Shown: positions 3,814 to 44,714, counted from the stretch's first letter. The stretch: 64,000 nucleotides of DNA from Vermamoeba vermiformis (GCA_045837725.1 JBEWZL010000294.1:186001-250000); one strand, 5' to 3'. Program-made: numbers and translations. Notes: generated from the letters alone by a model not told the origin.

Positions 3814-4732
3814 ATGGACGAATATGCTGATAGATACTTTGAGACCACTCTCAAGTGCTTGACGAGCAACATGCCCGATCTGTTCAATGTAGACTTGTCG
3901 CACCACGATCTGAGTCAAGGTAATAATTGCACTTATTATTTATGTGTAATTATGCGCTTGTAAATTAGCAATAAATTAACTCATAATTCGAACATTAATG
4001 AGGTTGTTAACAGCGCTATTCTATTGCAGACAAACTCGTTCGTTTGGCAGGTGAGATCCGCTCCAATCACGTGATGCCTCGTCCCGATGCGCTGTACTTG
4101 CCTTATTGGTACACTAACACCTTGTATTTCCATATTTAGAAGCACTGTGGCACAACACGCACTTGCAAGCGCTGGATCTGTTCGCCAACAACGCGCATCA
4201 GGGTCAATTTGCTGGCTGGAAGAAGTAAGTGTCACTGCGCTAGCTGCTGTTTGACACCTGTCATTTGCAGGCTCGGACAGGCCCTGGCACGCTTGCCTAA
4301 ATTGGTAGAGATCGACCTCGGCAACTGTCAGCTCGGTGACGCGGGTCTGGTGCAGCTGTTGGGCGAGGACGAACTGAGCGCTGGTCCCGATCACGTGCCG
4401 AGCTTGAGTCACGTGACAGTGAACTTGACCACGATCGATCTCTCCAACAACGCGTTCACTGAACTGTCTGCGCACCTCATTGCCAAATTTGTCAAGCGTC
4501 AGCAACACCTCGAAGAATTGGCGCTGCACACCAACCTCTGGACTGATCACGTGATTCCAATCTTTGCAGATGCCTTGGCCAACAAACCTCACGTAAGTCG
4601 ATTGCCTAATTAGGAAATGATCGCTGACGTTCGCAGCTGCGAAAAGTGTGGTTGCAAAAGAGTGGTCTGAGTGCTGAGGGCGTGACACAACTGCGCAGTC
4701 TGCTGCCCGAGCACGTGACACTCATGGTGTAG
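3814..4732 (+). CDS. Leucine-rich repeat (RNI-like) protein, multi-exon
   Basis: LRR motifs LVEIDLGNCQLGDAG, LTTIDLSNNAFT, LEELALHTN and LRKVWLQKSGLSAEG, joined by short GT-AG introns. Confidence 0.75.
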
Positions 4733-4957
4733 ACCTGGCACGTGATGGAGTTGCCTTATTTGGGCAAATCATTGAACTGTTCTCTCGGAGTAAATCTTGC
4801 GTGTATCATATGATAGGCTGACCAGTAAATGTGGCTGTAAATAATCAGTAGAGTGTTTGGAGTTACTATTAGCATATTATTATAGTAATAGGATGTTTAT
4901 TAAACAAAAATTCGGTGTTGAATAGCAGATGCAGAGCAGATCGTTAATTTAGCGCGA

Positions 4958-5427
4958 TTATTCGTGGTCCTCCTTGTGTTCCTCGTCGTAAGTGCGACCG
5001 AGCTTGCGACCAAGCAACATGAACAATTCGCTGTCACCATCAGCCCACGGGTACTTCTTGGAGCGGATGTGGGCATAAGGATACGGATTGCGGTGATAAG
5101 CGTGTTCCTCCTCAGCGAGCACGTAAACAAAGACAGCAGCGCAAATAGCTGAGCCAGCAATAGTGGCCTTAATCCATTGCTTAGAACCAGCTAATAAAAA
5201 TAATTAATTATTATTGAATTACAATAATAATTACAAATCGCTAGAGTAATGCTTTAAAAATTCATATCGTACACTATAATACATTATAATGCATTACAAT
5301 ACTTACCTAAGGCTTCTTCTTCAGAAAGAACGCCACCAGAATAAGCTCGCTTTTGAATGCGGCTGGTAAGAGTGTTTTGAATGAACTTGCGTTGGAAAGG
5401 AGCGGTCAAACGAGCAGCCCAACTCAT
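4958..5427 (-). CDS. COX6A: Cytochrome c oxidase subunit 6A (Cox13-like), 2 exons
   Basis: Exons 5427-5307 and 5190-4958. Arg-rich presequence, one TM helix (WIKATIAGSAICAAVFVYVL), then the COX6A signature YPYAHIRSKKYPWADGDSELF. Confidence 0.85.
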
Positions 5428-5569
5428 ATTTGTGTTTGTGGTGTATAGTGAGTATGATAAATAAAAATAGCCGCCGACAACAAAATCAGTTTGTTTTGAA
5501 AAATGTTCAGTGAACGGCACACACTGGGCTAACAAGACTTTATACAACGAGAGAGGGTACATAACGTGA

Positions 5570-7539
5570 TTAATACAATAGCTTGGACATGTACGGGCCA
5601 TCGAGTTCGTAGCCCAACTTCCTGTAGTAATGACGCGTGCCCACACCCGCAATCACCGCCAGTTTGAAGCTGCCGTGCTCTTCGCGTGCAATGCGCTCTG
5701 CCTCTTCCATCAACAGCGTGCCATAGCCCTGGTGTTGGAACAGCTTCGGATCGCGACTGTGCAGCGGTACTGCTGTGCCGTACACGTGCAGTTCACGCAC
5801 AATCGAGACGCGCGGTCCGTCCTCGTCCTCGGCGTGATCTCCGAGCTCGGTGGCACCTGTCAGTGTGCCTTGGGGCTCGTCTTCGTCCTCCTCCTCGCGC
5901 TCATCGCTGCCCGTGGTGCTGGTGTTGTTGCTGTTGAGCGTGAAGGGTGCAGTCAGTTCGGGTCTGAATGTGGCCGCGCTGCAGCGTCTGAGTCGCAAGA
6001 GGCCAATCAGAATGTCCTGCTTCGGATCTTCGTACGACAGGAAGGTCTCCCAGCCTCCATTCGCGTTGTAGTCGCGACGAATCAGCTCCACTTGATCGGG
6101 CTTGACTTTGTGGTGTATGTCCTTGATGCCCACTTCACGCGTGCGCACATCGCGACACTTGTAGCCGAGGTCGTGCATGCGCTTCAAACACAACTCGCGC
6201 AGATTGCCGTACTCGACACCTGACGTCACTAGGGGCATGGGGATGTCGCGTTGAATGCGGTAGATGCGCGTCCAGGGCGGCACGAGGGCCAACAACTTGG
6301 CGAGCAAGTCGACGAGCTCATCGGGGTGATAGTTCTTGTACTTGCCTGCCTTCCACAGCTCGTACAGGCCAGTGCCGCGAATGACGAGTGTGGGATAGAT
6401 CTTCAAGCCGTCAGCGCGGAACTTGGGGTCCTCGAAGAACTGCTTGAAGCCATTCATGTCGCGCTCGTAGCCTACATTGGGCAAGTCGGGCATGAGGTGC
6501 GACACGACTTTGAAGCCTGCGTCCTTGGCGAGATGAAAGCACTCGGTGACTGCGCGCACGGTGTGGCCGCGATTGGTGTCACGTGCCACGTCCTCGTACA
6601 CGGACTGCACGCCAATCTCCAAGCGCGTGCAGCCGTAGCGCAACATTTCACCGAGATGTGGCTTGAGACAGTAGTCAGGACGCGTCTCAATGGTGAGGCC
6701 AATGCACTTGACATTGCTCTGCTCCATGTACTTGACGGCCTCGTCCACGTTGTTGCTGCAGTGACCGGACAGCGCGTCGTGCAAGTTGCGGATAAAGTAG
6801 TCTCGGTAGTCGGCTGCGAGCGACATGAAGGTGCCACCCATCACAATGAACTCCACCTTGTCCGTAGAGTGGCCGAGTCGCTTCAGTTGATCCACACGAT
6901 TGCGCGTCTGCAAGTAGGGATTGTAACGCGCTCGAATGGCGCGCATGGATGTGGGCTCGTAACCCGTGTAGGACTGCGTGCTGTATTCAAAGTCACTGTC
7001 TGGACCTCCAGGGCAGTAGATACACACATTGCCAGTGAGTGCAATATGCGGACAGCGATGTGGCTTGGACATGACTGCAACCACTGCGATCTGCGACAAA
7101 TCTCAGAATAAATCGAATTGTTTGAATAATCGAGAAATAATGGCTTATACGATTATAATTATAATTGATTTGGATATTACAGTATACGTAAAATAAAATA
7201 GAGTTTAGTTAACTTACACCGGATGCAGTTCGAACAGGTTTAGCTTTGATTTTTGGTAATATAGCGCTTTTATATTGTTCAGGAATGGCTGCAATAATAT
7301 CGATAGTTTTTGGTTGGCGTGGCAAGCCATTCTCACGCGCAGCATCGATTTTAATTTTGGACAGATTGATCGACTTGCCTTCTTTGTGCGCGGTGATGAG
7401 CTGATTAACAATCTCGCCTATAATCTGCACCATCTTGCCGGTGCTGTTTGGTACCTCTTCTGCAACCATCAACGGGTTAATGACTAGATCCAGTCGTAAT
7501 CATTGTGTGGTACTTACTGCCTTTAGCTTTGGTGGCCAT
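5570..7539 (-). CDS. ELP3: Elongator complex protein 3 (radical SAM + KAT)
   Basis: [64 protein letters not shown] and [10 protein letters not shown]...FQHQGYG...[16 protein letters not shown]. Putative 34-nt first intron 7517-7484 and a second intron at about 7217-7091. Confidence 0.97.
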
Positions 7540-7723
7540 GACGAGCACTATTTTTTCTATATGTGTTGTAGTGCAGTCTATATATTTTATTACAACATTC
7601 GCTGGCAGACCAAAGCGTTCATAGCACGTGGTTGGAAATTTCATCCTGACCTTCAGAATTCGAGCTGTGAGCAACAGAAGTCATTCTAATCTCTTATCTA
7701 TATACTCGCTACTACACACTAGC

Positions 7724-8659
7724 ATGCAGCACACAGGAGCGATGCCGCTGAGTGGTGTGTCCGAGTGTGGACTGCCGCGCGAGTTGTGGGAGGTGATCGT
7801 GCAGCTGGACAGTGCGGCGCTGAATGTCGTGACGCAGGTGTGCGTGTTCTGTCACAAACTCTGCTTCGACAACGCTGTGCTCTGGCGACGCAAATGTCAC
7901 GCGCGGTATGGCACTGACGGCGCGAAACCTGCACTGCTCACTTGGAAACAGTACTATTATGCTGGTACGTCGTGCGGTGATTGTAGCTGTAATTATTGGA
8001 ATTATTGCGTAATATTTAAAATTAATTCAACCGTTTGGAAATAACACCTTACTTAGGCAATGATTTGTTCCCCTATCGCGGCATAATACTCGGTGTGAGT
8101 ACCTATGATCAGCTGATGCGTGTTGCAGGGGCAGAGAGCAAGACTCTCAATTCAGCGGACAAATACGTGGTGATAGACCAGATGTCGTTCTGGCTGCGTG
8201 ACGGCGTGTGTGATTCTGTGAGCCTGTCGCAGTATATCCCTAGGTACGTCATATACTGCATTAATAGCTGCAGTTAGACTCACTAGCACTGCAGACGATG
8301 GCAGCTCAAAGGCCTGACTTGGGCTGCGTCCTTCAACGCGTACAAGGCACTCTTTCAGCGCTGGACTGGCAACTATTGCGTGCATGACCGACCTCGCATG
8401 AAACAGCTCAAGAAGAATAAGCAGCAGTGGAGTGCTGGGCTGAGAACTGTCGTCAAGTCAGATGTGGGTTATTACGAGATTTCATTAATGTTCTTCAGCC
8501 TGAACGGTGGTAAGCGATCTTCAGCAGTAAATATAAGGTATTCATTGCACGACACTAGGCAGCGAAGATCGTCCTCACATGCTGAGTTCTATCTCACTCT
8601 CAGCGCGCAACACTGCCGCACTCGAACTGACTTACAATGCGCGCCAATGCGTGGAGTAG
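7724..8659 (+). CDS. F-box domain protein, multi-exon
   Basis: N-terminal LPRELWEVIVQLDSAALNVVTQVCVFCHKLCFDNAVLWRRKC fits an F-box. The C-terminal part is not recognised. Confidence 0.65.
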
Positions 8660-8971
8660 AGGCCGTTGTATTGGTGCACTTATGTATATAGAGTTGTATT
8701 AGAGGCTCATTGTTAATCTGTACTGGAAAGCTATCATCGCAATAAAGCACTTGTTCCTTTAGTCGAGTATGGTCGGTCTTAACTGACTCATCTTATTCAT
8801 TCAAATAGCTCACATGTATCGTGCATACCCTTGCAAGGTACGGCATGCGACATCGGTTATTAAGTCGGTTAATAATAATTACGCGTGCACGAGTATCAAG
8901 GTTGAATTCTCAGAACACTCGATTTATCTGCGTAGCAACAAGTGAGCACAACTCCACTTAGAACAGCGAAC

Positions 8972-10604
8972 ATGGAACCACCCAAGAATATACTCGTCAA
9001 GATACCACCGCTCATGGTAATTAGCAAGATGTTGCTGTGAACTGACTGCAGATCTGATTTTTAATTTAATTTTATTGTAGTACTTGCATGTGCTCAACAG
9101 AAATTCGCAAGTAGTGAGAGTCGAGGTGGTGAGTATCTATTTATTGTAATTGAGTCAAATAATTTTATTAGTCTTTAATTTCGTTCCTTGAAAATTCCCT
9201 TCAAATCCGCGTCTTAACACCAGCATTAATCGCATGTTTGAGTAGGGACCACAAACATTTTTCTGTCGTCAGGAAGAGCAGGTCCTCACAGGTCCCACCA
9301 ATATGATCGTCATTCCACCCCGTCACTACACGGTGGTTGAGAATCCAGTGGTGCGCGATGAACAGGGCCACGTGGTGCTCGATCGATTCGGCCAAGCTAA
9401 ATTAAGACACGGCGATGAAGAGGTGCGCGAGAGCCAAGACCCATTCCCGCTCTGGCCCGGTGAGCGCGTCAAATCCGGCATTCAGCCGCTGCAGATCGTG
9501 GAAGTGAACACCGCGCTGAGACTGCAAGCAGTGCGCGACTTTGACGACGAGATTGAAGTGCCACCACGTGACGCCAAGAGCCAGCCCACACGTGTCAAAG
9601 TGTCGCGCCACGCGGGCGAGGAGTGGCTGTTCTTGGGCCCGCAGACCTATCACCCGAGTCCCAATGTGCGCGTGGTGCACACGGTCAAAGCGCAGGTGAT
9701 GCAGCCTGGTGAAGGTGCGTGAGTGACAGGTGACACGTGTCAAATACTGACTTGTACAAACTACTAGCTCTGCGACTGCGCGCACGCAAAGACATGACAG
9801 ATGTCAACGGGAAATCTCGCCGCGCAGGTGAAGAGTGGCTGTACCGCAGCGAGGGGTGAGTGCCAGCATTACCTAATTAGGCAATCACTGACAGCAGTGC
9901 AGTCTGTACATGCCGCACGTGGATGAAGTGGTGCTGGGCGTGGAGCGCGGCTACATTTTGACCGAGAAGAACGCGCTGCACTTGGTGGCCAATCAGAGCT
10001 TTGTGGACATATTTGGCAAGCCGAGATTGGCGGGAGATCAGTGGCTCGTGACACGTGCTGACAGCGAGGTCTACATCCCCGACGTTCATGAACGCGTGCA
10101 CAATCAAGTGTCCCTCGTGTCCCTCACCAAGCGTCAGTACTGCATCATTCAACACCCCTACGACAGCACGCGGCACGTGACGCAGTGGGGAGCACAGCGC
10201 GTGCAGCGAGGTGTGGGTGACGAGCACGTGGACAACTTCTTTCTGCGCCCTGGTGAAGAGCTCGTGACGCAGAGCGAGGTGATTGTGCTCAACGAGGACG
10301 AGGCACTCAAACTCCGCGCGGTGCAGGGTAAGCATTTCCTAATTTGGTGCGGCTATTCATAGCTCTTGCAGAGTTCGACGATCAGGTGCCGAACAGCGAC
10401 AAAACAGTGCGACGCAGACCCGGTGAAGTGTGGTACATCTACGGCCCTGCAGAGTACTGGCCGTGTTTGGAAGCACGCATCGATCGGAGAATTCGCGCGA
10501 TCAGAATTGAAGGACTGCGCTGGTACTTGTTCCGTCCTGACAAAGTCGTGCTGGCCGTGCTGGCATTCTTCGCGCTCTTGGTGCTGCGATACATCTTGTT
10601 TTAA
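8972..10604 (+). CDS. Truncated major vault protein-like protein (7 vault repeats plus C-terminal hydrophobic tail)
   Basis: KIPPLMYLHVLNRNSQVVRVEVGPQT, IPPRHYTVVENPVVRD...QDPFPLWPGE, ALRL...AGEEWL...GP, ALHL...AGDQWLV and PGEVWYIYGPAEYWP match MVP repeats R1-R7. The frame ends VVLAVLAFFALLVLRYILF*. Confidence 0.88.
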
Positions 10605-10674
10605 TTGTAATTAGATACTTATTAAACCTTTGTACCATGACATTGTCTCGCTGTCTTTGCATGAATTTTCTCAT

Positions 10675-10720
10675 TTTCGCGCGGGTCTTCTACGCGGGAA
10701 TTTAAAAATTTCATTTCAAA
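10675..10720 (+). promoter_or_regulatory. E2F-like sites plus CHR-like element upstream of the CH-coiled-coil gene
   Basis: TTTCGCGC at 10675-10682, GCGGGAATTTAAA at 10694-10706 and TTTCAAA near 10714-10720. Confidence 0.4.
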
Positions 10721-10828
10721 ATCAAGTTTCACTGACACGAGCATTTGATTAGTACGTTGTGTACATAGGACCAACTAGGGTGATATTCATTTACTCTACA
10801 CGCAACAGTTCTACAGCAGTACACTCAG

Positions 10829-13800
10829 ATGTCCTCTCATAATCAGGTACGCAATTTCTTCGTATTGCAATTAAATATAAGTAGCATAATATATAAAAAT
10901 ATATTTGGTAATTACTACCTATTACAATATTTGAAATTGAAAATTTTTTAAATACTTATTAATAATAATTAAATAATTCAGATCCTGATTGAATGGCTGA
11001 ACTGGGCCCTCACCAAGCCACTAATACTGCCTCGTGGCTACGAGCCCTCCACTGACATAGCTCGCGTTCAAAATCTCGATGAAGATCTGCGCGATGGTGG
11101 CACGGTGCTCGAAGTGATCATGCGGCTCGAACAAGCACGGCGCGGCATTCACAGCGCGCAACAGCACGGCGAGGCACTCAGCAGCGAGGCCCTCGGTGTG
11201 ATTGAGTACAAGAAGCGGCCCAAGAGCGAGAAGTTCAAGCTGCACAACTGGGAACAGATCCAGCACGTGCTCGACACCGCACTGCAGTCACGTGATCTGG
11301 TGGCAGGCGTGCCAGGTGCCACCACTGCCCTGGTAGAACAGCTCGTGCAGCGCTACACCATTGGTGACAGCAATCACCTGCGCGAGTCGCTGCTTGACAC
11401 GTTGACACCGCACCGCGCACTCGATGCGGCTATTAATAGCGCTGTGGAGACACTGGCTGTTGAGTGGCAACTCTCGTGCGTACCTCACTCTGACACGTGT
11501 CATCTAGTCTTCGCACTAACAATCTCATTTGCAGTGCATTTGCAGATCCACTCGTGTGGCTCGCAGTGCTCCATCACCGCGCACGTGATGTGGTGGTCGA
11601 TGTGACACCATTCAGTGCTGTAAGTGTCACGTGATCGGGAATTCAGTGAAACTCATTTGTGAACAGATGACGGGCGCGCAGGAGAGGGCTCGTCACGTGA
11701 TTGAGACTTTGCAGAAATTCAAGAGCATTCCTTCTTTGGTGCACAGCGAACAACAGTTGCTAAATTTGGAACAAGAATTGACGCTGATTGACATTCAGCT
11801 AATCTTTGCGTTAATTTTACAAGCAACTGAACAATCTGCTGCACCGACCTCCGAGAGCGAAGAATTGACGAAACAAGTGCAAAGTCAGCAAGAAGAATTG
11901 CAAAGATTAAACGACACCCTCGTGGCACTCGATCAAGAGAAGCACGAGACAAGTCAGCAATTGACAGGTGTCAACGGACAGTTGTTGAGTCAAGCACCGA
12001 GCGAGTCGACCGATGACGCACAACTGCAAAGATTGAGGGCTGAACACGCACGTCTGCAAAGTGACCTCACTGCACGACGCGAGCACGTGACGCAGCGACA
12101 ACAAGAGTTGCAACAGCTGCGCGAACAATTGTCACGTGATCAATCGGCCCTGGCAGAGCGACAGCGAGCAGCGGAAGAATTGTTGGCACAAAAACAAGCA
12201 CGTGACGCAGAGTCCAAGCAGCTCGATGGGGAGATTGCAGCTCTGACCGAGCAACTGCAGCGCGATCAGTCCGAGGAGCACGTGATCAACGAACAGATGC
12301 AACGATTGCGCGAAGAGTTGCAAGGACTCGACGAGCAGTCGCGTGATGCAGAAAAACGCCGCGAGGAGATTCAGCGCGAGATTGAGGGAGAAAAATCCCG
12401 AGCGGAAGAACTCAAGCAGATTCATGAACAGCGCGCACGTGCTCAAGAGTCTGTGACACATCTCCGCGCAGAACAGCAACAACTAGATGAGCGCGTGCAG
12501 CAACAGCGTGACATGTTGACAGGTGTCAAACAGCAGCTCGGAACACTCGAAGAAGAATTGACGCGAGCACGTGATGCGGTGTCCAGCACGGAGCAGGGTG
12601 ATGTGAGTGCCCTGGAAGAGCAGAAAAAGACCCTGGCGGAACAACTCGAACAGCGCCGTGCTGAAGAGCGAGCCCTGGTCGAAGAACTGCAAACACTCAA
12701 GTCACGTGTCGAACAGCTGAGCAGCGAACGAGACCAATTGCGCAGTGAGCAAGAACGAGCCCTGGGAGATCGACAGCGAGCAGCGGAACAACTGTCACGC
12801 GATGTGGAGGCATTATCCACGGAGCTTACCACTGCCACGGAACACGTGACACGAGCACGTGATCAAGAACAGCAGTTAACAGGTGAACTGCAACGATTAA
12901 ATGAAGAGGTGACAGGTGTCAAAGAGCGAACTGCGCGCGAAGAGCAAGAGTTGACAGTGCGCGAGAGTGAGCTGCAAACACGACAGCAAGAACTGCAAAC
13001 AGCCCTGGTAGAGCAGCGCGAGAAGAGTGCGCAATTGACACGTGACATTGAAGCTCGTCAACAGGAGCTGACAGCGGCTAAAAATAGCTCTAGCCAACTC
13101 ACCGACCAACAGACCCAGGTGCGCGAACTGCAGTCACGTGTTAGCGAATTGGAGCAAAGCTTGAGTGCCACCACGCAAGAACTGGAGAGCGAGACGAACA
13201 CGTGTCAAACATTGCAGCAAAGATTGGCGCAGTTGACCGAAGAACTGCGCGCTGGCCCCGGTGAAGATCTGCAAAGATCAATCGAACAGCAGCAAAAAGA
13301 ACAGCAAAGATTGAGTGAGCTCAAAGCACAACTGCTGTCGCAGGTGGAGCAGAAGCGACAGCAGCTGCACGATACCAAATTAGGCAATCACCAACTGAGT
13401 CAACAGATCGAAACACTGCTCGATCAGGTGGCACAGGTCAAGCTGAGTGCGCAACAGCTGCAAGATGATTTGCAGCAGGAACAACTGCAAACGAACAAAC
13501 TCCGCGAGCACGTGGAGCAGCTGCGCGGTCAAGTGACAGATTTGGAAAGTGAACTCACGCAGCGCAGTGATCTGAGTGCCAGTGCCACGCCCGAACAAGT
13601 GCAAAGACTCGAACTCGATCTGCAACAGTTGACAGGTGTCAAACGCAGTGCTGAACAGTCACTGCTCAATGAACGCGCCGTGCAGCAACAACTCGACCGC
13701 GAACTCAAATCTGCAAAGCAACAGCTGATTGACCTGCAAAAGCAAGTGGAGGATAAAAATAGCCTTAAAAATGCGCGCAAAGAATTGAACCGCGTGAAAA

Positions 13801-14612: not shown

Positions 14613-14683
14613 CATGCAGCACGTGTTTTCAGTGAATAAAACTTGCGATTTTATGTGTAGAGCGATCTGTATCACACGAGTTC

Positions 14684-16464: not shown

Positions 16465-16902
16465 GTCCTGATAGGAACAAATAAATGATACTAAAGATAC
16501 GCACCGTGGACAATTTTTGTACTAAAATTTGACAGTCAAATTTGACAATAATACCTATTTTTGGAAACACTCACGCTACCGTTACACGTGTACAACAAAA
16601 ATGGTACGGAACGTAGGTTGAAGGTAGTTCGTTTATAGTGGACGGTATTCCATCGTGTTATGGGTGACTAATATATAAGCGTTTTAGCGCAATTGTTCCT
16701 TTTTCTGCCGATCTCTGACAGGATCTACTAGTGGTCATATGATGCAATCGATCTGCTAGATTTGTATAATATACTCTATATTGGTCAAAAATGACTTTTT
16801 GTATTTGGAATTCTATTTATTGACCAATCTTTGGCACGTGACTTGCACGAATGAAAATTTCTGTGAAGTCACTGCCATCACAACTTACCTATTGCCAACA
16901 AG

Positions 16903-17208: not shown

Positions 17209-17260
17209 TAAATGTAAATAATTTTTGAATTTTTTTAGAATTTTTATTTTGACACTGATT

Positions 17261-25691: not shown

Positions 25692-25725
25692 TCAATCAAC
25701 GAGGGTCAATAAAGCATTTACTATA

Positions 25726-33258: not shown

Positions 33259-33403
33259 TATGTTCATATGATGTAAAATAGTAAACTTATTTATTGGTCC
33301 CTTTCACAAACCGCCATTCGTTTGTTTTTTCGTTCCATTTTATTAATTTAAAAGCGACAGGAGCGACATACCAGCATATATTTATATTGTCTAAATCCTG
33401 TAA

Positions 33404-34822
33404 ATGACAACAAGACATGCAGTTATATTGGTGCTGGCTCTCAGTCTGTTGCTGAGTCACGCTCCGACAGCAGATGCGCGCTGGTACGATTGGGTGCAGG
33501 ATAAAGTTCAGAATATAGGCAATGCCTTTCATGACCTCATTGCGAGTTGTCCTACACGCGAAGGATACAAAGATACATTGCGTAGTGGACTCGAGAAGCA
33601 GATTTTCGGTCAAGAGCAAGCAATCAATCGCATCGTGTCAGGATTCCAAACACATCCTGCTGGCAAACCATTGTCATTTCACTTTGTAGGAGTAAGTATC
33701 ATAGTGACAGGATGGTGCTATATAATTAAATACAAATATTTTCAAAAAAATTGAAAATAATTGCGCAAAATTCAAAATGCAACACGAACCGCTTAAACGT
33801 TGTTAATTACAACAAGGGGATTAAATATATATTTTTTAAAAAAATTGTGATGACGTCACTGAACTCGGATCCAGGACAATGGCACAGGCAAGACTAAGAC
33901 CGCGAAGATCCTCGCAGAACTCAAGTTCTCCAAGCGCGATCAAGACAATATACCGCGTGGACTGCTCTACTTGCGCGGCAATCACTTCAGAATTGGCGAG
34001 CAGTTGTTTAGTGCTGGCGAAGTCAAACTTCAGAGCAACAACGCGAGCAGCAGTGCGCACCAGAACGGCACGCAAGAGAACCAGAGCTCACTCTCGAGAC
34101 TGCGAACATTAATCCGCGAACAGTTGTTGACGCAGTTAGCGCTGTGTCCCGAGAGCGTGATCATCATTGACGAGTTCGAATTGTTTCACCGTCGCACCGT
34201 CACGGTGTTCCAAGAATTTCTCGATGCCACGTACCCCGTCATTACGTACAACAGTAAGTCGTTGCAATCTACTCTATCCAGTGCCATCGACTCACACTAG
34301 CCCGCACCAGATCTGAAAGCACGCCTCGATAAGGCCACGTACATCTTCATCTCAGACTTTGGCACAGCAGGCATGACCAGTCAAATGTCACTCGCGGAGA
34401 TTCACGCGCTGGTGGTGGCTGAGTGTGCACGTGCTTGGCAAGACAGCAAATTGACAGCTCTGCTCTCACATGTCGTGCCATTCCACCCTCTCTCGCGCGC
34501 TGGACTTGTTGACTTCACGAACCACTTGTTGACATCTTTGACAGCTCATCCAAGACTCGCGGAGGCACGTGTCAAAGTGTCAGCTGTCACCGTGCAGTCT
34601 CAACAGGCCTTTGACAAATTAATCGACACGCTGTGGCAAGCCAGTCAGTCCCCGCCACTGATTGGTTGGAACTATCGCGGTGTCGAGCAGTTGTTCGAGT
34701 CATTGGTTGCCGAGCCTTTTTTGGCAACTGTTCAAGAACAGGCTGATCACGTGCTTAATGTAGCGCTGGTGGATAGCAAGACTGGCTGGGACTTTCAAGC
34801 AACACATGTGAGTGACAAGTAG
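33404..34822 (+). CDS. Torsin-like AAA+ ATPase with signal peptide (3' end uncertain)
   Basis: Signal peptide, then LEKQIFGQEQA, KPLSFHFVGDNGTGKT (Walker A across intron 33692-33874), CPESVIIIDEFE (Walker B), YIFISD and VVPFHPLSR. Confidence 0.72.
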
Positions 34823-35405
34823 AGTCGTGTGTAGGAAGTGAAATTACCATGCAAGTGCGTTACTGACACGTGTCAAATGCCCGCCCCCACAGCAGAGTTC
34901 AGCAAGGGTTGCACTGAGAAGAACAAGAGCACGTCTAATATCGTTGTACAGTATAAACAACATTGTATTGTGCTTGCGAGGTCATTTTGTTCCAGTTTGT
35001 GGGTTAATGCTCGACATCCGCTCGTTCATGAAAGAACGTCGCGGAGAATAGCAGTGATTCTTGGGCTAAATGCCGATAGCGCTAGAGCTCGATCGGGCAA
35101 GTACTAGCACCCTCAATAAGAATTCAGTCGTCTTTTCAGTGCTGCGTCGCGGCTCTTGTCTAGATTGGGCAAAAGGCGCCATTGACGCGCAGAACAGTTT
35201 GTTATTATTGGCCGAGGTGAATAACACCACTGGGAACAACAAGTCACGGGGTGTGAAAACAATTTATTTTAGAACGTAAGTAGGGATACTGCAGGATTCA
35301 GCACTATTCTGTGGTTGGCTAACGAGATTAGTGAAACAGATGAGGTGATCTCGATTATAAAATAATAATAACCGAAGCAAAGTCATCGAATAAGAAGAAT
35401 TTGAT

Positions 35406-37509
35406 ATGACAGAAACAACAGAAGAGCTCAATGTTGAGCCTTTTCAAAATAATGGGCTCTCCATTATGCACATCAAGCTAAACGAAGTTCTTATGAAGAA
35501 GTTATCTTCAGGTCTAGCAACAGCATCTATTGTATTCAATGGTCTAAAGGCGGTAAGTACTATTTTAAGAAATTAATGTCCGCGAAAGTCGATCAAGCCG
35601 GATTTATTTAGTATTTTATTTTGGAGGTCTAAAATTGCTGGCAGACCTGATTACTCAAAATCTAAAAGTTATTTACGGGTGACATGCAATACACGAAGCT
35701 TTACAACCCTCTATTTCTGACTATTCGCAAAATTAAAAATCTTTTCATCTGAAATGACCTCGCAAACAGTCAGCCATCAAAATCACGTAATAATACGTGC
35801 ATTATATATTCTCATAAAATGGTGTAATTAACGCATCATTTTGTGGTGTACAATCGGTTCTAAGTTGGGTTTTTCGAACGGAATTTACACAACTCTGAAA
35901 TTTCAACTAAAATTAACCCGATGGACGCACTGCACATAGTATTATAACATAACAATAATGTACTCGCTACAGTGCGAGTTAATCCGGCTTTAATTGTCAG
36001 CAAATTTTTGTTCTGCATAAAATAACAGTTTCCATATTTGGACCTACAGTCACGTGCTAACACCTCAATTCTTGCAGACGCTGAATGTGGGTGGTGAGAG
36101 CTACACCGTGCAAGTCACGCATTCACAGCCGCGCAAACACGTGTGTCTTGCCCCTGACGCGGACAAAGAGAACTGCGTGCAACAGCTGGGCTGGGTGGAC
36201 AAGCGACTGCAAGTGCAAACAGCGCTGAGCCACTCCATGAAAGAGCGCATGAAGCAGACCTGGCGCGAAGAGGAACAGAGTAAGTCGTGACTATTAAGTG
36301 CCAGTGTAGTGTTGTTAATCGCTGGACAGAGGAGAAAAGTGCGCAGAACACGGCCAAGTTCATTGACTCCAGGGCTGACTTGCGCAAAGAACGTAAGTAC
36401 AACTGTTGTTGTTGTGCATATGAAGGGACAGTGCATCTAACAGCGCTGCAGACTTCAAGTCCATGGAAGAGGCCAAGAAAAAAGCGAGTGTCACTCCCAA
36501 GCAGGTCGAGAAGAAGCGCGAAATCAAAACAGTGCAAATACGCAAAGAGTGAGTACTAACAGCTCCATATATATAATGCCCTAATGTCGCAGCACTGACC
36601 TCTCCGCAGAGACACACGAGCCACCAATGGTCGAGCAGCAATACCACCGATCACTAAGACAGCACCAGATATCAAACAAGAGCGCACTGGCCAAAAAAGG
36701 AAATCAGTGTCACCGCCCAGATCAGCAGATCGCGGCATCAAACGCGACAACAAATCAGCCACAGAGGACTCAGAGCCACCGAGGAAACGACCGCGATCAA
36801 ATTCACCGAAAAAAGATGACCCTGCACCGGTGACAGCTGTCAAACCGAGTGCTGCACCACAACCAACACGTGCTCAGCCCCCACAATCCAACGGTCGTAG
36901 TGACAGCACGAGTGTGTCGCGCAGTCTAGATCCAGCGCGCGATGAACCAGCCAAGCGCGAGCGGAGCAAATCAGCCATTCAGAGCACGAACAGCAGTCGT
37001 ACGATGAGTTCAGCGTCGAACGGTGAGAGTGCAGGACGGGGGCGCAGTGCAAGCAGCATATCAGGCACGAACAGTGGGGGCATTGACCCACTCGATGCGA
37101 TTGATCTCAATGCACCGCTGTCGGATGTGGACACGTCGAAGGAGATCGAGTCAATAGAGCAATTCATCGAGTACAACAGTGCTTGGGATAGCAAATACAA
37201 CATGTATATAAAACTGTATAAACAACTGGACAAGAACAAGAAGCAGATCGAGCTGCTCAAAGACAACTATTCAACAGCCAGCGGCGACCAGCGACAGCGA
37301 ACTGCAGAACAAGTCAAAAACCTGTATATAGAACGCAATCAAGTACGTATATACTTGTTATTATAGTAACACGAGCTCATCGGTGGTGTTCTTAGGTGGT
37401 TCAGAACATGCGCGCCAAGTACGAGCAGTTGCACGGTGAACTGACCGATTTGAAAGCGAAAATCAACTCTTTTATCGCCAAAGAGATCGAAAAGCAATAT
37501 ACTAAGTGA
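35406..37509 (+). CDS. RNA polymerase II elongation factor ELL-like protein (C-terminal occludin/ELL domain)
   Basis: N-terminal HIKL...QLGWVDKRLQVQ, a low-complexity middle, and a C-terminal IESIEQFIEYNSAWDSKYNMYIKLYKQL...YEQLHGELTDLKAKINSF. Confidence 0.7.
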
Positions 37510-38044
37510 GGACACTATGTAGTGTATATAGAGACATGTCTAGTGTGCCTTGTTTGGTGTCGATTGATTTGCAGACCAGATCTGGAGGCGATGCATCCTG
37601 TGACATTAATAAACCTTGTAAGTAAGCCAATCATCGTCGTCATCCCAATACAGCACAATACACGTCACAATCAGCTCAATATTGTGGGTTACAAGACCGT
37701 TCTGTACAATATCCGCTAATCGAGGATTTCACTGGAATTTCAGTTGGATCTGACCAAAGTCGTCACTGATGACGCGTTAATCGGCGAATCATAAAGACCT
37801 ATCTTTGCAGGAATGATCTCTTCATATGGACGAATGATATCAGAGCGTGACGTGGCCCATGATCAAACCGCTAAAAAATTAAGAAAAGGTGCGTGCAAGT
37901 TCCACGCGACAAAAATCAACTTTCAGCGGCACATCATTTGTTTAATACGCCAAAAGACACCACAACACCTTATTGGTTCATATAAGACGAACTTCGTCGT
38001 TATATACTTCACCTTACTTAACGTTAAGACAATCCACAAGAAGT

Positions 38045-39214
38045 ATGAAATTCCTCGACATCAGCAGTCTGGCGATATTGACGACTCAATTGACGCGTAT
38101 CGATGCTGGAGACAGTTATATATATGGGAGGATAGAAGCCTATTCATGTACGAAACAAATCAAGCGAATCGATGGCGCTCGATCTTCCGCCGACGAAAAT
38201 GATAAATAATTAATACGCCCTTATATCAATAGGTAAAAAGGCAGGCTCAGACAAAAAACTTTACAAATCATTAGAACAACAATATCAAGATGAAATTGCG
38301 CGCTCGCCTGACATGGCGCTGCTTTCATCTTCTCCATTCGGACCTCTCAACGAAAAACAGAGCCGTTTAACTCTTATTGAACTAATATCTACTCTCAATG
38401 CTGCTTTTCAAGATTATGACTTTAGGTACGCATTCAATTTCAGTTGGTGAACCCTAAATAATTTTTATTAAACTTGGATTTGCAACGGGCACTCCATGGA
38501 TAATGATTCTAATAACTCAATTAGATTAAATATCTCAATAATCATCTTACTTAACGAAGATACAATCTAATTCACACAAGTGAATTCAAACTCGAATTTT
38601 ACTAATTATTTTCAATAATTTTTCGGCGTACAACGGCTAGTCGTCTTAGTTATGCGCCACGAATCACTTTTAATTCACTACAAAACACAAATATAATTTC
38701 TGGTCGATATAGTATTAATACGTAATGTTTCAGCGACCTCAAGCCCGAACAATTCCGCAAAGAGCCGTCAATACACGCGATCTGCTTGCATATTGACAGC
38801 ATGCTGAGTTCTCACATTCCAAACTACGAGGAGTTCAAGGGCAAGATGTGGACCGCTATTGATCAAGAAATTCAACTCAGAGACAGCCTAATTTATTCGT
38901 TGGTTCTGGCTGATCCTGATTCCGATCCTTTCGCTGAAGACGGCAATGTGTAAGTTTGACATGAGAATATGATATAGCAATGTATATTACATCGACTAAC
39001 GATCACTATATACATTTAGATGGAACTTTAACTACTTTTTCTACAATAAAAAACTGAAGCGGATCATGCTGTTTACCTGTCGTGCGCAACGAAAGGAGGT
39101 AGCAGCTGAAGGGTAAGTAGCGCAATACATATAGTCACTGTGGAGTATATGCTGATGTGAGCACTTAGTCTGACGTACGACGATATGATCGGCGAAGAAA
39201 TGGAGTTGGACTAA
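38045..39214 (+). CDS. MAF1: Repressor of RNA polymerase III transcription MAF1, multi-exon
   Basis: MKFLD...GRIEAYSCKKAGSDKKLYK, GPL...SRLTLIELISTLNAAFQDYDFS, WTAIDQEI, PDSDPF and WNFNYFFYNKKLKRI. Confidence 0.95.
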
Positions 39215-39700
39215 TGGATCCGCAACGAGTTCAACTCGGACACTAATTGGCGCTACACGATTAGTCTCTGTAGTATTATTGTGGCATATTTATAACACGT
39301 TGTTGCGCTGACTAAGACTGATAATTACATTAGTTTAATGTATTAGTCTTGTTCGTAGTGGCGTGTTCGTATTGATGTAGATAGAGTTTTTGTATTATAT
39401 ACAGCTGTAGTTAGTTAGTTAGGAGAAATAAATCTCATTTCTATTAACTAGGCCTATAGACGACGTAATTGTAACAACAAAAAGAAATGTGACCTCGATC
39501 CACGATACTGGTTGCAGCTTTCAATAATTGGCAGGCTCAGTTTGGCAACATGATGACCTATATTAATATCAGCGGTATTGAAATCTCATTGGTGAATCTG
39601 CCCCTACAAATCCTATATTTTTAAGACTGTCGACGAATATTTTATTTGCTTTTCAAAAACATTTATCAGACCACACAGCTAACCATTTGTTCATTAAAGC

Positions 39701-40702
39701 ATGGAAAATAATAATACAAATCAGAGTACCAACACTAACAACAACAATGGCGATTACTTGACGAGATTGCCGGCAGATGTGCTGCAAAATATTTTCAAAT
39801 ATATTCCTGCGGCCAATCGCATGAAAACGTGCGTTAATTTGCGTCGTGCAAGCAAAGGAGCGTATTCAATAGGCACAGATGAATTATTGAAAGCAATTAT
39901 CGACCAGATCAACACTGCTTTACTCGCATTGCAAGAACGGATTTTGCAACTTCAAAACAGAGCCAATCAGCAACAGAACAGCGTATTGACCTCTGTATTT
40001 CACAACTTGCCCAAGTACCACGAGCGACTCACTGTCGTGCAAAATCGCGTCAGACAGCAGCAACAATTGCGCCAAGCCTTGTACAACCAAGATCCACTGC
40101 CCTTTGAGGTCAAACAACAGCTCGTAGCATTAGTGCCTCTCACCTCTGAACTACTCAATGCGCAGATGTTATTGAACGCCGTCAAGTAAGATTTTGATGC
40201 AAAAGTCCCTTCCATCTGAACGTGTCTAACACTGACCGCTATTTACAGGACTGAAGACATTCGCATCACTGCTGCATTCACGTGTAAGTATTAGCTCGCT
40301 AGTACTCCTTGTTTATCTGTCTAATTACCTTAATTAGACGATCCGTATCGAGATCCACTGCGCGTACAGCCAATGCCCCATGTACCCTTCCCGTACATGC
40401 CAGATCCACTCAATCCCACTCCTTTTGCACCACAACCACCCATATTCCCGCAACCAGGACCCTATTATGGCGAGCCTAGTCCTGATGAGTTACGGCCTCC
40501 TGGCTTTGACGATGACTATGGTGCGCGTGACTTGGATCCACTCGGTATCGGAGGTGCTCCGTTCCCTTACGGTCCATTTGTACCAGGCCCTGGTGGTCGC
40601 GGTCGTGGTCGTGGTGTATTCCCACCTCCCAATCCTAACATGCCTCCTCCTAACCCGTTCAACCCACATCCAACTCGTCCGACCGGTCCTCGCTGGTTGT
40701 AA
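39701..40702 (+). CDS. F-box protein with proline-rich, PI31/FBXO7-like C-terminal region
   Basis: LTRLPADVLQNIFKYIP (F-box). The last exon is Pro/Gly-rich with RPPGFD, YGARDLDPLG and GRGRGRG. Linked by introns near 40185-40248 and 40284-40337. Confidence 0.65.
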
Positions 40703-40785
40703 ACACATTTTTGTTATGGTAATCCAAAATTAGAAACAAGTGCTTTTAGGAATAAACAAACAGTTTACTAAATATGATTACAAGA

Positions 40786-43700
40786 TTACGCTTTGTTGAA
40801 CTTGCCAAGCAGTTCTTCAACACGAGCAGTCAAGTACTGCGGCGTCAACTCTTCATCTGACTCTTCGGCGGTGATGGCACGTGCCAAGCGGTGTGACATG
40901 TTGTGCAGTGTGGCTTTGAGCGCTGATTTGTCGCTGCGACGCACCTTCTTGTCTTGACTCGGCGCCATTGTAGCAATTGCACGCAAGACGCGATAAGCAG
41001 CGGGCAAGAGCTCGTTGTCTTGCTTCGACAGGTAGGACTCGACAAAACTGCCAAACTCAGCCGTGGTGACTGCTGATCGGCTGACTACTGCCAACACAAA
41101 GTCCGCGTCGTACGTCAAGCCAGTGCTCGTGGTGGGCAATTCCTCGGGCAAGTTGTCAGGCACGTCAATGTTCTCGATGACACGTGTCAAGACGTGGTTT
41201 ACGAGACTGCGCAGAGCTGAACGTTGTTTGCTGAGCACAATCAAGTCTTGCAAGCGAATAATCTCGTGGTGCCGAGCCATGGCCTCATCAGTGACGTCTT
41301 CTTGGTCTCGCAAGAATGACAGCGTGTCATCAACGAGCTTGAGACACTTCTTGTGCGGAATAATGCTGCTGTCTTCTTCTGTGTCGCCGCGGTGATAGAG
41401 CTGATAGACCAATTTGAACGAGCAGCCAATCACTTGCATCACCGTCTCAGCTACAATACAAACGTTGAATAAATGCGGTATGATGGTAAAGGGCGTTACT
41501 TACTGGACAGGTGCGAGGCACGAGACACCACTGTGGCAGCCATTTCGAGCACGTGACTGATGACACCACCACTGCGAACAAGACGCATGGTGATGACATC
41601 TGTCAAAGTCGTGAACATAGTCAATAAGACGCGTTCAACCAATTGCTGCAATGTGCGTGATTGACGCTTTTCAGTGAACGGAATGACGTGCTCTTCCGTC
41701 CAGTCCACAAAGTCGCCGAATGAGGGCACCTCTTGCGAGGCAGTGCCAGCAACGTGCACCAAAAGTCGCCAGTAAGTGGTCATCAATCGCACGGCACTGT
41801 TCGCCTCTTCTTCGTCAGTCTCACGGGCCTCGAGACTGGCTTCAATAGCGCTCGTCCATTGTTCGTGAAGTGCAACGATGAGTTCTTGGATCTGATCTTC
41901 GTGCAACAACCACTCGCGCAGCTCAGCGTCAGCAATCACGTGATCAATGGTAGTGTTGTTGAGCTGGTCAGTCATGCGGCCCAAGATTGAAGCAGTCTTG
42001 CCCCAGCTGGTCAACAATCTCAACGCGGCACGAGATGCGCCAGTAGCAGAGTCGCTGTTGGAAGAGATGTTCTTGGTCACGAGTGCTGTCACGTGCTTGA
42101 GCAATTTGGGACAGTTCTCGACAGGCATGTGACGAGCAATGGTCCAAACAGCTGTCAACAACTTGGAGCTGGTCTTTTCAGCTGCCTTGGTGGCCATCAG
42201 CAATGCATTGTCGTCCATGACATCGGTCAATATCTTGTACAGGGGTTGATGTTCCTTCTCTTGCAATTGACCAGAGACAGGTTCGAGAATGGTGACAATG
42301 ATCTCAGTCAATGCTGTCGCGGTGTCGGAGTCTTGCAAGCTCAATGAGGCCTCAGCTAGTTTACAATGTCAATACACGGCATTATAAATATTATGGCACT
42401 TACCAGTCTTAGCACGCTTGGCATTGGGCTCCTGGTCGTCCTTGTCCTCGCCAGCTTCAGAAGCATCATCGGGTTTGCTCGCGACACCAGTGACTTTGAG
42501 TTTGTACCAAGGCACGAGAATCTTCTTGAACAGCTTGCCGATGAATTTGACGGCAATGCTAGGCACGAGTTGAGGTGCCAAAGCACGGTAGAACTCGAGT
42601 GCAGCCATGTGATCAGCCTCGACGAGAGTGATGCAACGAATGACCCACTGGCTGGCTGATTTCTTCACGGGGAAGTACGTGTCGGACAACAAGGCCACGA
42701 GACCTTCGACGACTTTGTTGGACTCGGGACTGGTCAAAGCAGCTCCGTCTTGCAATGAGTGCAACGACTCTTCGCGCAGTCTGGCCAACAAGTGATCAAT
42801 TGGCACCACCTCCCAGAACTTGATGGCCTTGATGCGCTTGATCTCGTTCAACAGCAACACAAAGGCGAGTCTGACCTTCTCAGAGCTGTCATGCATCAAC
42901 ACTGCAAGACGTGGCAAGTGCGCCTTCAAGAAGTTGTGTGACAAGTGATTGTCCAGCACGAGTCTCAACGCTTGGAACACTGCTTCGCGCACACGGTAAT
43001 CACTGGCGTCGAAGGCAAGTTCGTCGATCAAGTGCAGCAAGAGCGAGGACTGATAGACTGTTGGCACGAGTTCCCAGTACAGCGACAAGATGCGGCCAGT
43101 AGCGAGCACACCTTTGACGCGCACGAGGGGCACGGGGTCATTCTGCAATTGTTTCACGTGCTCGAGTTGTTCTTCGAGCTGCTCTTGCATGAGACGTGGG
43201 GGCAGGTTAGCCGGCAGCAAGGGGAACACGTAGCCGAGTTGAATGGCAGCGTTGCATCTGACACGCGGATTGGCTACTTTGAGTGACCGCCAAATGATAG
43301 GCTCGTAGAGGCGTGTCAAAAGATCGTCCAACTGTTTGATGCGCACTTTTTCTTCGACAATGCGTGCCAAGATATGCTGCACGGCTTTGAGAATACGAGT
43401 GTTCTTGACGTGAATCGAGTGGTGGATCAGATCTTGCAAGCAGTTGTGTTCTATTATCGATCCACGTGTTAGCTAGTCCATAACTCGGGTTTGATTCTTA
43501 CCAATGCGGACCAAGCAAGCTCCTTGTGCAGCCTTCCAAGCACGCAGATAAATTTCAGCAAAGGCATCGAGCTGAGACTTCTTCGCGGTCGTGATCTGCA
43601 ATAGCTCGTGAGTACAGCAATGCATTGGACAGTGCATGATTGATAACTTACGCCCGACTTAATGGTACGATGCAACTCGTCAACGAGTGGTGCGCTGATG

Positions 43701-44667: not shown

Positions 44668-44714
44668 GATTGAATAAAGCAAGCCTCTTCTCTATCACTA
44701 AGAGCAATTAAAAA

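Follow-up and report, generated by a model that had tools for sequence, protein, structure and literature searches.

Results

Genes and features of the window

We analysed a 64,000-nt stretch of the Vermamoeba vermiformis assembly GCA_045837725.1 (JBEWZL010000294.1:186001-250000), hereafter the window, with positions counted from its first base. The DNA is eukaryotic and nuclear, its GT..AG introns are short, and two nested palindromic words, the hexamer CACGTG and the 12-mer TGACA-CG-TGTCA (TGACACGTGTCA; general form TGACA-N2-TGTCA), occur in it far above expectation. A lineage-specific constraint on the DNA itself keeps both words dense over at least 44 kb. The 12-mer had been picked out in an earlier note on this DNA, which took the unit to be TGACA(SS)TGTCA and likened it to HIP1, the highly iterated palindrome of cyanobacteria.

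The genes listed below were identified with Pfam, except for the CK1-like kinase and the leucine-rich-repeat (LRR) open reading frame (ORF) at 25726-27153, which were named from their translations.

1-2661, minus strand, AP-4 epsilon-type adaptin
about 4140-4610, plus strand, LRR gene
4961-5203, minus strand, COX6A
5570-7102, minus strand, ELP3
9246-10359, plus strand, major vault protein
14684-15598, minus strand, beta-lactamase-like gene
17261-17893, minus strand, EMC3
21124-21669, plus strand, RPL7
22549-25688, plus strand, SNF2 helicase with UBA domain
25726-27153, minus strand, LRR ORF (translation)
28610-28924, plus strand, Ras-family GTPase
32380-32868, plus strand, RCK-domain channel
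42369-43472, minus strand, condensin-II subunit
49670-50707, CK1-like kinase ORF (translation)

ELP3 is 98% identical to a EukProt transcript, 84% to a JGI protein and 77-79% to dictyostelid and Physarum entries and several other proteins; identities to chytrids and other eukaryotes are 73-79%. These values hint, no more than weakly, at Amoebozoa. COX6A comes immediately downstream of ELP3, in the same orientation and across a very short spacer, and the gene model merged the two. Scans of the window for tRNA genes and Rfam families returned no matches.

A 12-mer palindrome with a strict half-site spacing

The perfect 12-mer TGACACGTGTCA occurs 13 times in the window, against a mean of 0.01 in 100 dinucleotide shuffles, none of which reaches 13. 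The wider class TGACASSTGTCA, made up of these 13 copies and nine variants, occurs 22 times (shuffle mean 0.04, 0 of 100 as high). These exact counts agree with those made by eye in the earlier note, which had also placed no perfect copy beyond 41.2 kb: the last one ends at 41189, with none farther right in the window. All 22 sites are listed here.

9731..9742, perfect TGACACGTGTCA, predicted 53-nt intron 9715-9767 of the major vault protein gene (+)
11491..11502, perfect TGACACGTGTCA, predicted 59-nt intron 11476-11534 of a CH-domain/coiled-coil gene (+)
14149..14160, perfect TGACACGTGTCA, coiled-coil exon, reads E-V-T-R-V-N, in a degenerate TPVK-type repeat
23292..23303, perfect TGACACGTGTCA, predicted 58-nt intron 23279-23336 of the SNF2-type helicase gene (+)
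23445..23456, perfect TGACACGTGTCA, predicted 52-nt intron 23433-23484 of the SNF2-type helicase gene (+)
26292..26303, perfect TGACACGTGTCA, exon of LRR ORF 25726-27153 (-), reads L-T-R-V-T
26661..26672, perfect TGACACGTGTCA, exon of LRR ORF 25726-27153 (-), reads L-T-R-V-T
26817..26828, perfect TGACACGTGTCA, exon of LRR ORF 25726-27153 (-), reads V-T-R-V-N
30742..30753, perfect TGACACGTGTCA, predicted 54-nt intron 30727-30780 of a K+-channel-like gene (+)
31290..31301, perfect TGACACGTGTCA, 4 nt upstream of a predicted 3' splice site (TTAG); 5' intron boundary uncertain
31605..31616, perfect TGACACGTGTCA, predicted 53-nt intron 31569-31621, 5 nt from the intron 3' end
34864..34875, perfect TGACACGTGTCA, 42 nt after the stop of ORF 34301-34822; modelled as non-genic, could be 3' untranslated region or a missed intron
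41178..41189, perfect TGACACGTGTCA, exon of a condensin-II-subunit-like gene (-), reads L-T-R-V-I
4252..4263, variant TGACACCTGTCA, predicted 46-nt intron of an LRR gene (+)
11962..11973, variant TGACAGGTGTCA, coiled-coil exon, reads L-T-G-V-N
12517..12528, variant TGACAGGTGTCA, coiled-coil exon, reads L-T-G-V-K
12910..12921, variant TGACAGGTGTCA, coiled-coil exon, reads V-T-G-V-K
13630..13641, variant TGACAGGTGTCA, coiled-coil exon, reads L-T-G-V-K
14254..14265, variant TGACACCTGTCA, TPVK repeat, reads V-T-P-V-K; at least partly a protein-level repeat
14359..14370, variant TGACACCTGTCA, TPVK repeat, reads V-T-P-V-K
24783..24794, variant TGACACCTGTCA, overlaps the 5' splice site (GTGAGT) of a 54-nt SNF2 intron; joint 24775 to 24831, 3 reads, run X21
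36831..36842, variant TGACAGCTGTCA, within ORF 36599-37366; exon/intron status doubtful

By our own simple dynamic-programming exon/intron gene model, which is rough and received two manual corrections, seven of the perfect copies are intronic, five are exonic and one lies shortly after a stop codon. Nine sites in all had previously been called as lying in tiny introns, and each of the nine falls within a predicted GT..AG intron of 46-96 nt. Among the joints listed in the RNA comparison, which covers window positions 11401-31400 (as does the metagenome comparison) at low depth outside RPL7, one of these nine introns, that of the variant at 24783, is supported; the other eight are drawn from the gene model together with visible GTAAGT/GTGCGT...YAG contexts. 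The remaining RNA-confirmed introns among those joints are three in RPL7 and one at 28.6 kb. Placed reads of RNA run X21, which carries the same species label, are mostly 95-99% identical to the window (8606 of 11277), with dense fixed differences in EMC3, pointing to a diverged strain or cryptic species. In RPL7 the introns verified by RNA (20803-21214) measure 91-124 nt, are very rich in A+T and contain TAATTA-type runs, unlike the ~50-nt introns of motif-rich genes. Run X21 also yields many joints between opposite strands in RPL7 (20560-21215; 20597/20990 and 20560/20936, for instance, are each seen in dozens of reads), which are probably artefacts of strand switching while cDNA was made from a very abundant transcript.

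The geometry of the 12-mer is strict in its spacing and loose in its centre. Inverted TGACA half-sites are found 24 times in the window at a spacer of two bases and 0-2 times at each spacer of 0, 1 or 3-8 bases. The 24 centres are CG (13), CC (4), GG (4), GA (1), GC (1) and TC (1). When the flanks on the two sides of CACGTG are compared, TGA alone pairs with itself: 35 of 218 half-sites carry it, which predicts ~2.8 symmetric 12-mers, and 13 are observed.

The sites share the word and little else. No two surroundings (±50 nt) of TGACASSTGTCA sites are alike, and the 60-nt flanks of the 13 perfect copies have a mean best identity of 18.0, against 16.9 of 60 for random sites, and a maximum of 25, against a 99.9th percentile of 27 for random sites. 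A palindromic form and copies within introns might be explained by a mobile element, such as a family of miniature inverted-repeat elements or introners, that left ends, footprints or solo terminal repeats, and 7 of 24 listed contig loose ends lie within 8 nt of a 12-mer site. We nevertheless consider this origin very improbable. Besides the unrelated flanks, the exonic copies are in frame and read x-T-R-V-x, the differences between the window and the relative described below are point substitutions rather than 12-base insertions, and the far commoner bare CACGTG sites have no element-like structure. The marks of a transposon family (shared flanks, terminal repeats, target-site duplications) are absent, since flanks are unrelated and differences are substitutions; the earlier note had named shared flanks as a possible sign of one transposon family.

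The loose ends in question, of metagenome and RNA contigs near TGACA-SS-TGTCA, are at 11974, 12532, 14141, 23461, 26287, 30754 and 31307, with two more at bare CACGTG; such sites take up ~2% of the stretch. It could be that many other loci share only the word, or that contigs break there. One contig of run X4 joins 30754 to 24186 with 35 foreign letters, and comparison with the window left it uninterpretable.

CACGTG and other over-represented words

In the window CACGTG is the top hexamer, with 109 occurrences against 24.7 expected under an order-2 Markov model (z = 17). Its extensions rank first at each length in a k-mer survey with the same model: CACGTGA occurs 79 times (13.8 expected), ACGTGTCA 38 times (3.3) and ACACGTGTCA 30 times (0.3), these two with both strands counted, and TCACGTGA 16 times (1.9). 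Words related to the 12-mer are thus as enriched as the earlier note had sensed for TCACGTGA and ACGTGTCA. The hexamer's one-mismatch neighbours stand at 0.65-1.45 times expectation, and the control palindromes CAGCTG, CAATTG, GACGTC, AACGTT, GAGCTC and GTGCAC are all at expectation. No regular spacing of CACGTG sites is apparent by eye from their coordinates. The unit is therefore broader than the 12-mer: there is a general CACGTG excess plus a TGACA-N2-TGTCA class. The earlier unit, TGACA(SS)TGTCA, survives as a real class, but the excess reaches well beyond it, and a conserved intron site described below has TA at its centre in the relative.

A third palindrome, CAGATCTG, which contains GATC, is present in 14 copies with unrelated flanks, in exons, introns and spacers (1081, 3102, 9049, 15176, 15654, 15998, 18041, 24829, 25594, 28992, 34308, 37577, 43902 and 44209). 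Thirteen copies fall in 1-44 kb, against 1.2 expected, and none lies beyond 44209. In exon pieces there are three, against 0.39 under the codon shuffle described in the next section (5 of 500 shuffles reach three). One of the two copies that can be aligned to the relative is conserved.

Two further kinds of word stood out in the window. The homeodomain-like TAATTA palindrome CCTAATTAGG is found at 4605, 9872 and 26770 (three copies, ~0.01 expected). Two copies lie in predicted tiny introns, ~12-17 nt downstream of the 5' splice site; the third falls within the oppositely oriented LRR ORF, where the surroundings also resemble a plus-strand intron. The copy at 4605 is unchanged in the relative. 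The enriched words CCAGGGCTCG and AACCAGGGCT of the k-mer survey are due to a 27-nt tandem repeat at the 3' end of the adaptin gene (window 25-178, 5.7 copies), which encodes (N-T-I-N-Q-G-S-P)n.

The excess is a property of the DNA

We compared exons with a codon-aware null in which synonymous codons were permuted 500 times within 25 exon pieces (19,992 nt), keeping the proteins and per-gene codon usage. The exon pieces contain 70 CACGTG (25.2±3.8 in the shuffles), five perfect 12-mers (0.14) and 12 TGACA..TGTCA (0.48), and none of these values is reached in any of the 500 shuffles. Against a first-order Markov expectation, CACGTG in 1-44 kb occurs 82 times in 29.3 kb of exon (16.5 expected; 2.8/kb), 13 times in 5.8 kb of intron (1.6 expected; 8-fold) and eight times in 9.0 kb of spacer (1.6 expected; 5-fold). 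Because the codon-aware null does not remove it and introns and spacers show it too, the excess is a property of the DNA, not of protein or codon usage, and the earlier contention that protein selection is insufficient holds. Over the same 44 kb the full 12-mer makes up 7 of 13 intronic CACGTG sites, against 5 of 82 exonic ones; it is thus preferred where coding poses no obstacle.

The word is also legible in the proteins. In exons CACGTG uses every frame that the code permits, in genes of both strands. The dipeptide His-Val occurs 41 times, against 16.4±3.9 in residue shuffles, and [SPTA]-Arg-[VADEG] 75 times, against 36.1±5.6 (0 of 500 shuffles in either case), and the reversed patterns are not enriched in the same test (13 vs 16.4 and 28 vs 36.3). 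His-Val is coded CAC GTG in 33 of 41 cases (18.7 expected from codon usage), including all of those in AP-4 epsilon (9/9), the vault protein (4/4) and the coiled-coil gene (9/9), and [SPTA]-Arg-[VADEG] is coded NCA CGT G in 37 of 75 (5.1 expected). All five exonic copies of the perfect 12-mer are in the frame x-Thr-Arg-Val-x (EVTRVN, LTRVT twice, VTRVN and LTRVI); of the remaining frames, one opens with the stop codon TGA and the other requires Cys. The word has altered protein sequence, changing ~1% of codons.

Not every site is an independent event. The perfect copy at 14149 and the variants at 14254 and 14359 share a degenerate peptide repeat of the T-P-V-K type, so these three copies are not independent; they are the only ones that belong to a tandem or protein repeat, and TRF finds no array at the other sites. 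Six to seven of the nine variants lie in the coiled-coil gene and are partly owed to its peptide motifs, several GG and CC variants among them. The four GG variants all read L/V-T-G-V-K/N in surroundings that are otherwise unrelated; for a glycine-bearing pentapeptide to recur four times in a coiled coil, a DNA word would be an easier explanation than the protein. Repeats of this kind are what an account without any special process (codon usage, peptide repeats, chance or an assembly or polishing artefact) can draw on: the TPVK repeat stands for two to three copies only, and the GG variants share their reading in one gene. As an explanation of the whole it is barely credible. The codon-aware null is missed by 12 standard deviations, introns and spacers carry the excess as well, an independent metagenome assembly has the same excess and conserved positions, and RNA contigs of another run show 3 differences in 1765 nt of the coiled-coil gene.

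With seven of 13 perfect copies in tiny introns, and TGACA-SS-TGTCA in ~12% of the introns predicted in the motif-rich part of the window (domain A below), the word might instead act in its RNA form, UGACACGUGUCA, as a pre-mRNA splicing signal, branch-point mimic or site for an RNA-binding protein. In three introns it ends 4-7 nt from the 3' splice site, where TGAC could serve as a branch point. Yet six introns have a separate downstream branch sequence of the CTRAC/TTAAC type, the RNA-verified introns of the highly expressed RPL7 contain no copy, and CACGTG is enriched 5-fold in spacers too; two-fold symmetry would be purposeless for a single-stranded reader, and 12 nt are too short for a stable hairpin. 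We regard an RNA-level element as quite improbable. The two-fold symmetry, the equal excess in genes of either strand and the presence in spacers require a force that acts on double-stranded DNA. That force recognises at least a hexamer and arose recently in the lineage.

The excess is switched off within the contig

The earlier note had suggested a genome-wide process. As a uniform property this is contradicted within the window itself, since the last 20 kb, with native genes, show no excess. The window divides as follows.

1..44300, motif-rich domain A: CACGTG 103 against 21.1 expected; all 22 TGACASSTGTCA
44301..64000, motif-poor domain B: CACGTG 6 against 4.2 expected, i.e. chance; no 12-mer and no TGACA-N2-TGTCA

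Counted per 4 kb along the window, CACGTG occurs 18, 9, 14, 22, 3, 4, 6, 9, 7, 3, 8, 1, 1, 1, 1 and 2 times. At the class rates of domain A, domain B should hold 36.5 sites and has six (Poisson P = 5e-10); its codon shuffle gives 1.56 expected against three observed, and the residue-shuffle test finds no peptide imprint in it. The rich part has its final CACGTG at 43463 and its final CAGATCTG at 44209, which places the switch at the spacer that separates the condensin gene from the one after it. An assembly chimera or foreign origin of 44-64 kb was considered and is unsupported. The exon tetranucleotide signature of domain B correlates with that of domain A at r = 0.89-0.93 (0.95 within A), and for the domain B ORF 50892-51971 there are relatives of 90% identity in JGI, Logan and EukProt sources, the same kinds of source as for motif-rich genes. 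GC3 (G+C at third codon positions) is somewhat lower in domain B, and predicted introns are longer (median 79.5 vs 57 nt).

Density also varies from gene to gene. Inside domain A, a poor patch at 15601-22500 (EMC3, an unknown gene and RPL7) has three sites against 15.1 expected at domain rates, and these three genes (15.6-22.5 kb) are among the better expressed by RNA depth in 11401-31400. CACGTG reaches 6/kb in the AP-4 epsilon gene and is zero in EMC3, RPL7 and CK1. The earlier note had seen no copies in RPL7, COX6A or CK1, and indeed there is no CACGTG at all in 21124-21669, 4961-5203 or 49670-50707 (the last identified as CK1 by translation). GC3 was tried as a predictor of density and shows no gene-level relation (coiled-coil gene, GC3 0.51 and 7/kb; ELP3, 0.74 and 1.3/kb). 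The observed/expected ratio of CpG is ~1 throughout.

This patchiness bears on a directed molecular drive, the stricter form of the HIP1 analogy, which we hold to be possible though doubtful. Sequence-specific enzymes would convert near-matches or heteroduplexes to the palindrome. One candidate is an orphan DNA methyltransferase paired with a mismatch-specific repair nuclease; the other is motif-biased meiotic gene conversion. The words would then spread without gene-level use, and purifying selection and the local recombination rate would set their density. It fits that the most conserved and most expressed genes carry few or none (ELP3, RPL7, EMC3, CK1), and that the motif-poor domain, with its lower GC3 and longer predicted introns, looks like a low-recombination region. 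It does not fit that gene-level GC3 fails to predict density, or that the weakly conserved proteins, introns and spacers of domain B are without excess, so that constraint alone cannot explain the patchiness.

Conservation in relatives and age of the trait

A metagenome scan with the adaptin ORF returned two contigs that are mutually identical at all 1950 overlapping bases (1950/1950) and together match the window at 2982 of 3749 bases (80% DNA identity). They contain 15 and 8 CACGTG, against 2.3 and 1.0 expected, so the excess, which the earlier note allowed might be confined to this contig, is present with conserved sites in an independently assembled relative. At 11 loci of distant homologues (24-37% identity, with one short match at 63%), CACGTG occurs 0-8 times against 0.2-9.0 expected. 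Viral contigs were scanned for the signature of a 12-mer followed by CACGTG within 10-40 nt; the 20 stretches found had a single 12-mer each and CACGTG near expectation, and were set aside as consistent with chance.

Sites are conserved above background in this one relative, over 4.2 kb: 16 of 22 aligned window CACGTG are intact, against 1431 of 4245 hexamers overall (34%; binomial P = 2e-4) and 109 of 317 CpG-centred hexamers. When the comparison is restricted to the adaptin exon, 11 of 17 are intact, against a 41% background (P = 0.04). At two conserved sites the residues have changed (TSRD/TARD and RARD/KSRD) and CACGTG has been kept. The intronic variant at 4252 is TGACATATGTCA in the relative, with both half-sites retained and TA instead of GG at the centre, and two extra CC-centred sites of the relative are each one substitution from the window, with no insertion.

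Within the aligned part, six CACGTG sites are private to the window and none to the relative, all 16 of whose sites are shared (two-sided P = 0.03). The six unshared sites differ synonymously in three cases and non-synonymously in three, and none of them shows a CA/TG transition of the deamination type. The one-sided gain is as a drive would have it; against one, the lack of CA/TG variants at these sites and the CpG ratio of ~1 leave no trace of methylation, deamination and repair.

The peptide imprint gives an age. An 88%-identical AP-4 epsilon protein, the only close relative of ours, has 10 His-Val against 2.9 expected (0 of 1000 shuffles), and none of the imprint is found in the next homologue, at 39% protein identity, or in three more distant ones. 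The trait thus arose, or survives, only in a narrow lineage, and with one close relative for AP-4 epsilon that lineage is poorly sampled. An imprint missing at 39% identity makes the trait recent, as a drive account would also have it.

Discussion

Two candidate explanations: selected binding sites or a directed drive

Our tentative reading, to which we give a little less than an even chance and in which we infer binding, proteins and function alike, is that the words may be selected binding sites of putative dimeric, sequence-specific DNA-binding proteins. One putative reader, of the E-box/G-box type, would recognise CACGTG, and a second would recognise inverted TGACA half-sites two bases apart; the 12-mer would satisfy both. 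Purifying selection on the sites, or on their density, would maintain the words. The function would lie at the level of chromatin or of the domain, in marking, loading or organising a chromosomal domain rather than in classical promoter control, because the sites fill gene bodies, not promoters, and stop abruptly at ~44.3 kb. What favours binding is the strict two-base spacing with a free centre (24 sites at spacer 2; GG against TA at the conserved intron), the preference for the full 12-mer where coding leaves room for it, and the normal frequency of near-miss hexamers together with the absence of a methylation-decay trace. The gene-by-gene and domain patchiness favours it over a uniform mutational bias.

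Several observations weigh against selected binding sites. Exons hold 2.8 sites per kb, and ~64 of the 70 exonic sites need amino-acid replacements; this is far denser than known transcription-factor sites and implies a large selective load. Site conservation and the peptide imprint are expected equally under a strong directed drive. The flanks of exonic CACGTG do not lean towards the 12-mer optimum, Asp codons following oftener than Val, and two unrelated systems may therefore lie behind the hexamer and the 12-mer. The six window-private against zero relative-private sites look like ongoing one-directional gain, which drive explains more naturally, and the lower GC3 and longer introns of domain B are predicted by a recombination-linked process, not by binding-site selection.

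A drive, the chief rival, would, in addition, account for an excess in all sequence classes including spacers, for protein sequence overridden on a large scale, and for several unrelated palindromes in the same domain (CACGTG, TGACA-N2-TGTCA and the GATC-bearing CAGATCTG, 13 vs 1.2). It is at odds with the undepleted one-mismatch neighbours of CACGTG (0.65-1.45 times expectation, with no depletion of one-off variants like that left by very short patch repair) and with the strict two-base TGACA spacing around a free centre, which is predicted by protein binding and not by the copying of one fixed word. If it did operate, which we think possible rather than probable, the words would be the first eukaryotic counterpart of HIP1 or of the bacterial DNA uptake sequences (DUS): self-propagating palindromes (CACGTG, TGACACGTGTCA, perhaps CAGATCTG) spread by methylation/repair or gene-conversion drive, active in some chromosomal domains but not in others, younger than the split from the nearest sampled sister lineage, and responsible for rewriting ~1% of codons (His-Val, x-Arg-Asp, Thr-Arg-Val) in the genes affected. 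The remaining probability lies with mechanisms other than those considered here.

Sites bound by protein would make up a new kind of gene-body or domain-marking system, and driven words a new form of eukaryotic molecular drive. In practical terms, a DNA word distorts peptide composition, codon-pair statistics and motif-discovery backgrounds in this lineage.

Comparison with known systems

Our next question was whether comparable words are known elsewhere. Iterated palindromes that override coding sequence are known in bacteria (HIP1 and, functionally, DUS, the uptake signal sequences or USS, and Chi), and their purpose is still debated. HIP1 (GCGATCGC) is a short cyanobacterial palindrome that exceeds Markov and codon-aware expectation by orders of magnitude. 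It is found in coding as well as non-coding DNA, leaves its mark on peptides, is more conserved between orthologues than background and is missing from some genomic patches. The window palindrome likewise exceeds Markov and codon-aware nulls, occurs in coding and non-coding DNA, marks peptides, has conserved sites and is missing patch-wise. By phenomenon, cyanobacterial HIP1 is the closest system, and four of its defining features are found here, so that the earlier term HIP1-like is apt as a description (a palindrome inside and outside coding DNA that marks peptides and whose sites are conserved). The window differs from HIP1 in being part of a eukaryotic nuclear genome with spliceosomal introns, in having two nested words (6-mer and 12-mer) plus a third, CAGATCTG, and in an excess that turns off over 20 kb of native genes; and unlike for HIP1, we know of no cognate methyltransferases for its words. 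Cyanobacterial HIP1 is treated in the parts of PMC4390886 and PMC13756078 available to us.

E-box/G-box sites of bHLH(-ZIP) and bZIP proteins (USF, TFE, Cbf1, plant G-box and ABRE binders) have the same CACGTG core, the E-box that the earlier note had pointed out within the 12-mer. The forms (G/A)TCACGTG and ACACGTGTC, frequent in the window, resemble the flank preferences of Cbf1/USF and of the plant ABRE. Unlike these sites, which occupy promoters and enhancers at low density, the sites in domain A are exonic in 82 of 103 cases, at 2.8/kb and with altered proteins; their location is not promoter-like or regulatory, with eight in spacers. The form GACACGTGTC occurs in plant stress-promoter papers, in the sections of them at hand.

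The palindromic TALE-homeodomain dimer site TGACAGCTGTCA (TGIF/MEIS/PKNOX type) has the same inverted TGACA half-sites with a 2-bp spacer, and to that extent the likeness drawn by the earlier note stands. The central GC of that site does not: the window centre is CG in 13 of 24 sites and GC in one, and the sites are in gene bodies and introns. Excerpts of PMC6158717 have TGIF1 binding TGACA and give TGACAGCTGTCA.

Neisseria DUS, Pasteurellaceae USS and Chi are likewise over-represented words that invade coding regions and bias peptides. They are 8-12-mers, rarer in recently acquired DNA and kept by recombination-linked drive; unlike the window words, they are non-palindromic and strand-oriented, and to our knowledge their mechanisms (uptake receptor, RecBCD) have no eukaryotic counterpart. 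The pairing-centre and rex/MEX motifs of C. elegans, the Ruby motif of piRNA clusters and the MSL recognition elements of Drosophila are domain-enriched motifs read by a dedicated DNA-binding protein that marks the domain, and in them, as here, enrichment of a short word covers one chromosomal domain and does not extend into the adjoining DNA. Unlike the window words, these animal motifs are essentially non-coding and non-palindromic, and we know of none that remodels protein sequences.

In a literature search that many subscription papers lay outside, the exact 12-mer was found only in primers, and neither an iterated palindrome in eukaryotes nor a CACGTG excess in amoebae was reported. What is new here, with no earlier report found, is a nuclear eukaryotic case whose effect is legible in proteins, which is conserved in a relative and which switches off sharply within a contig, and this switch-off provides an internal control that bacteria do not offer.

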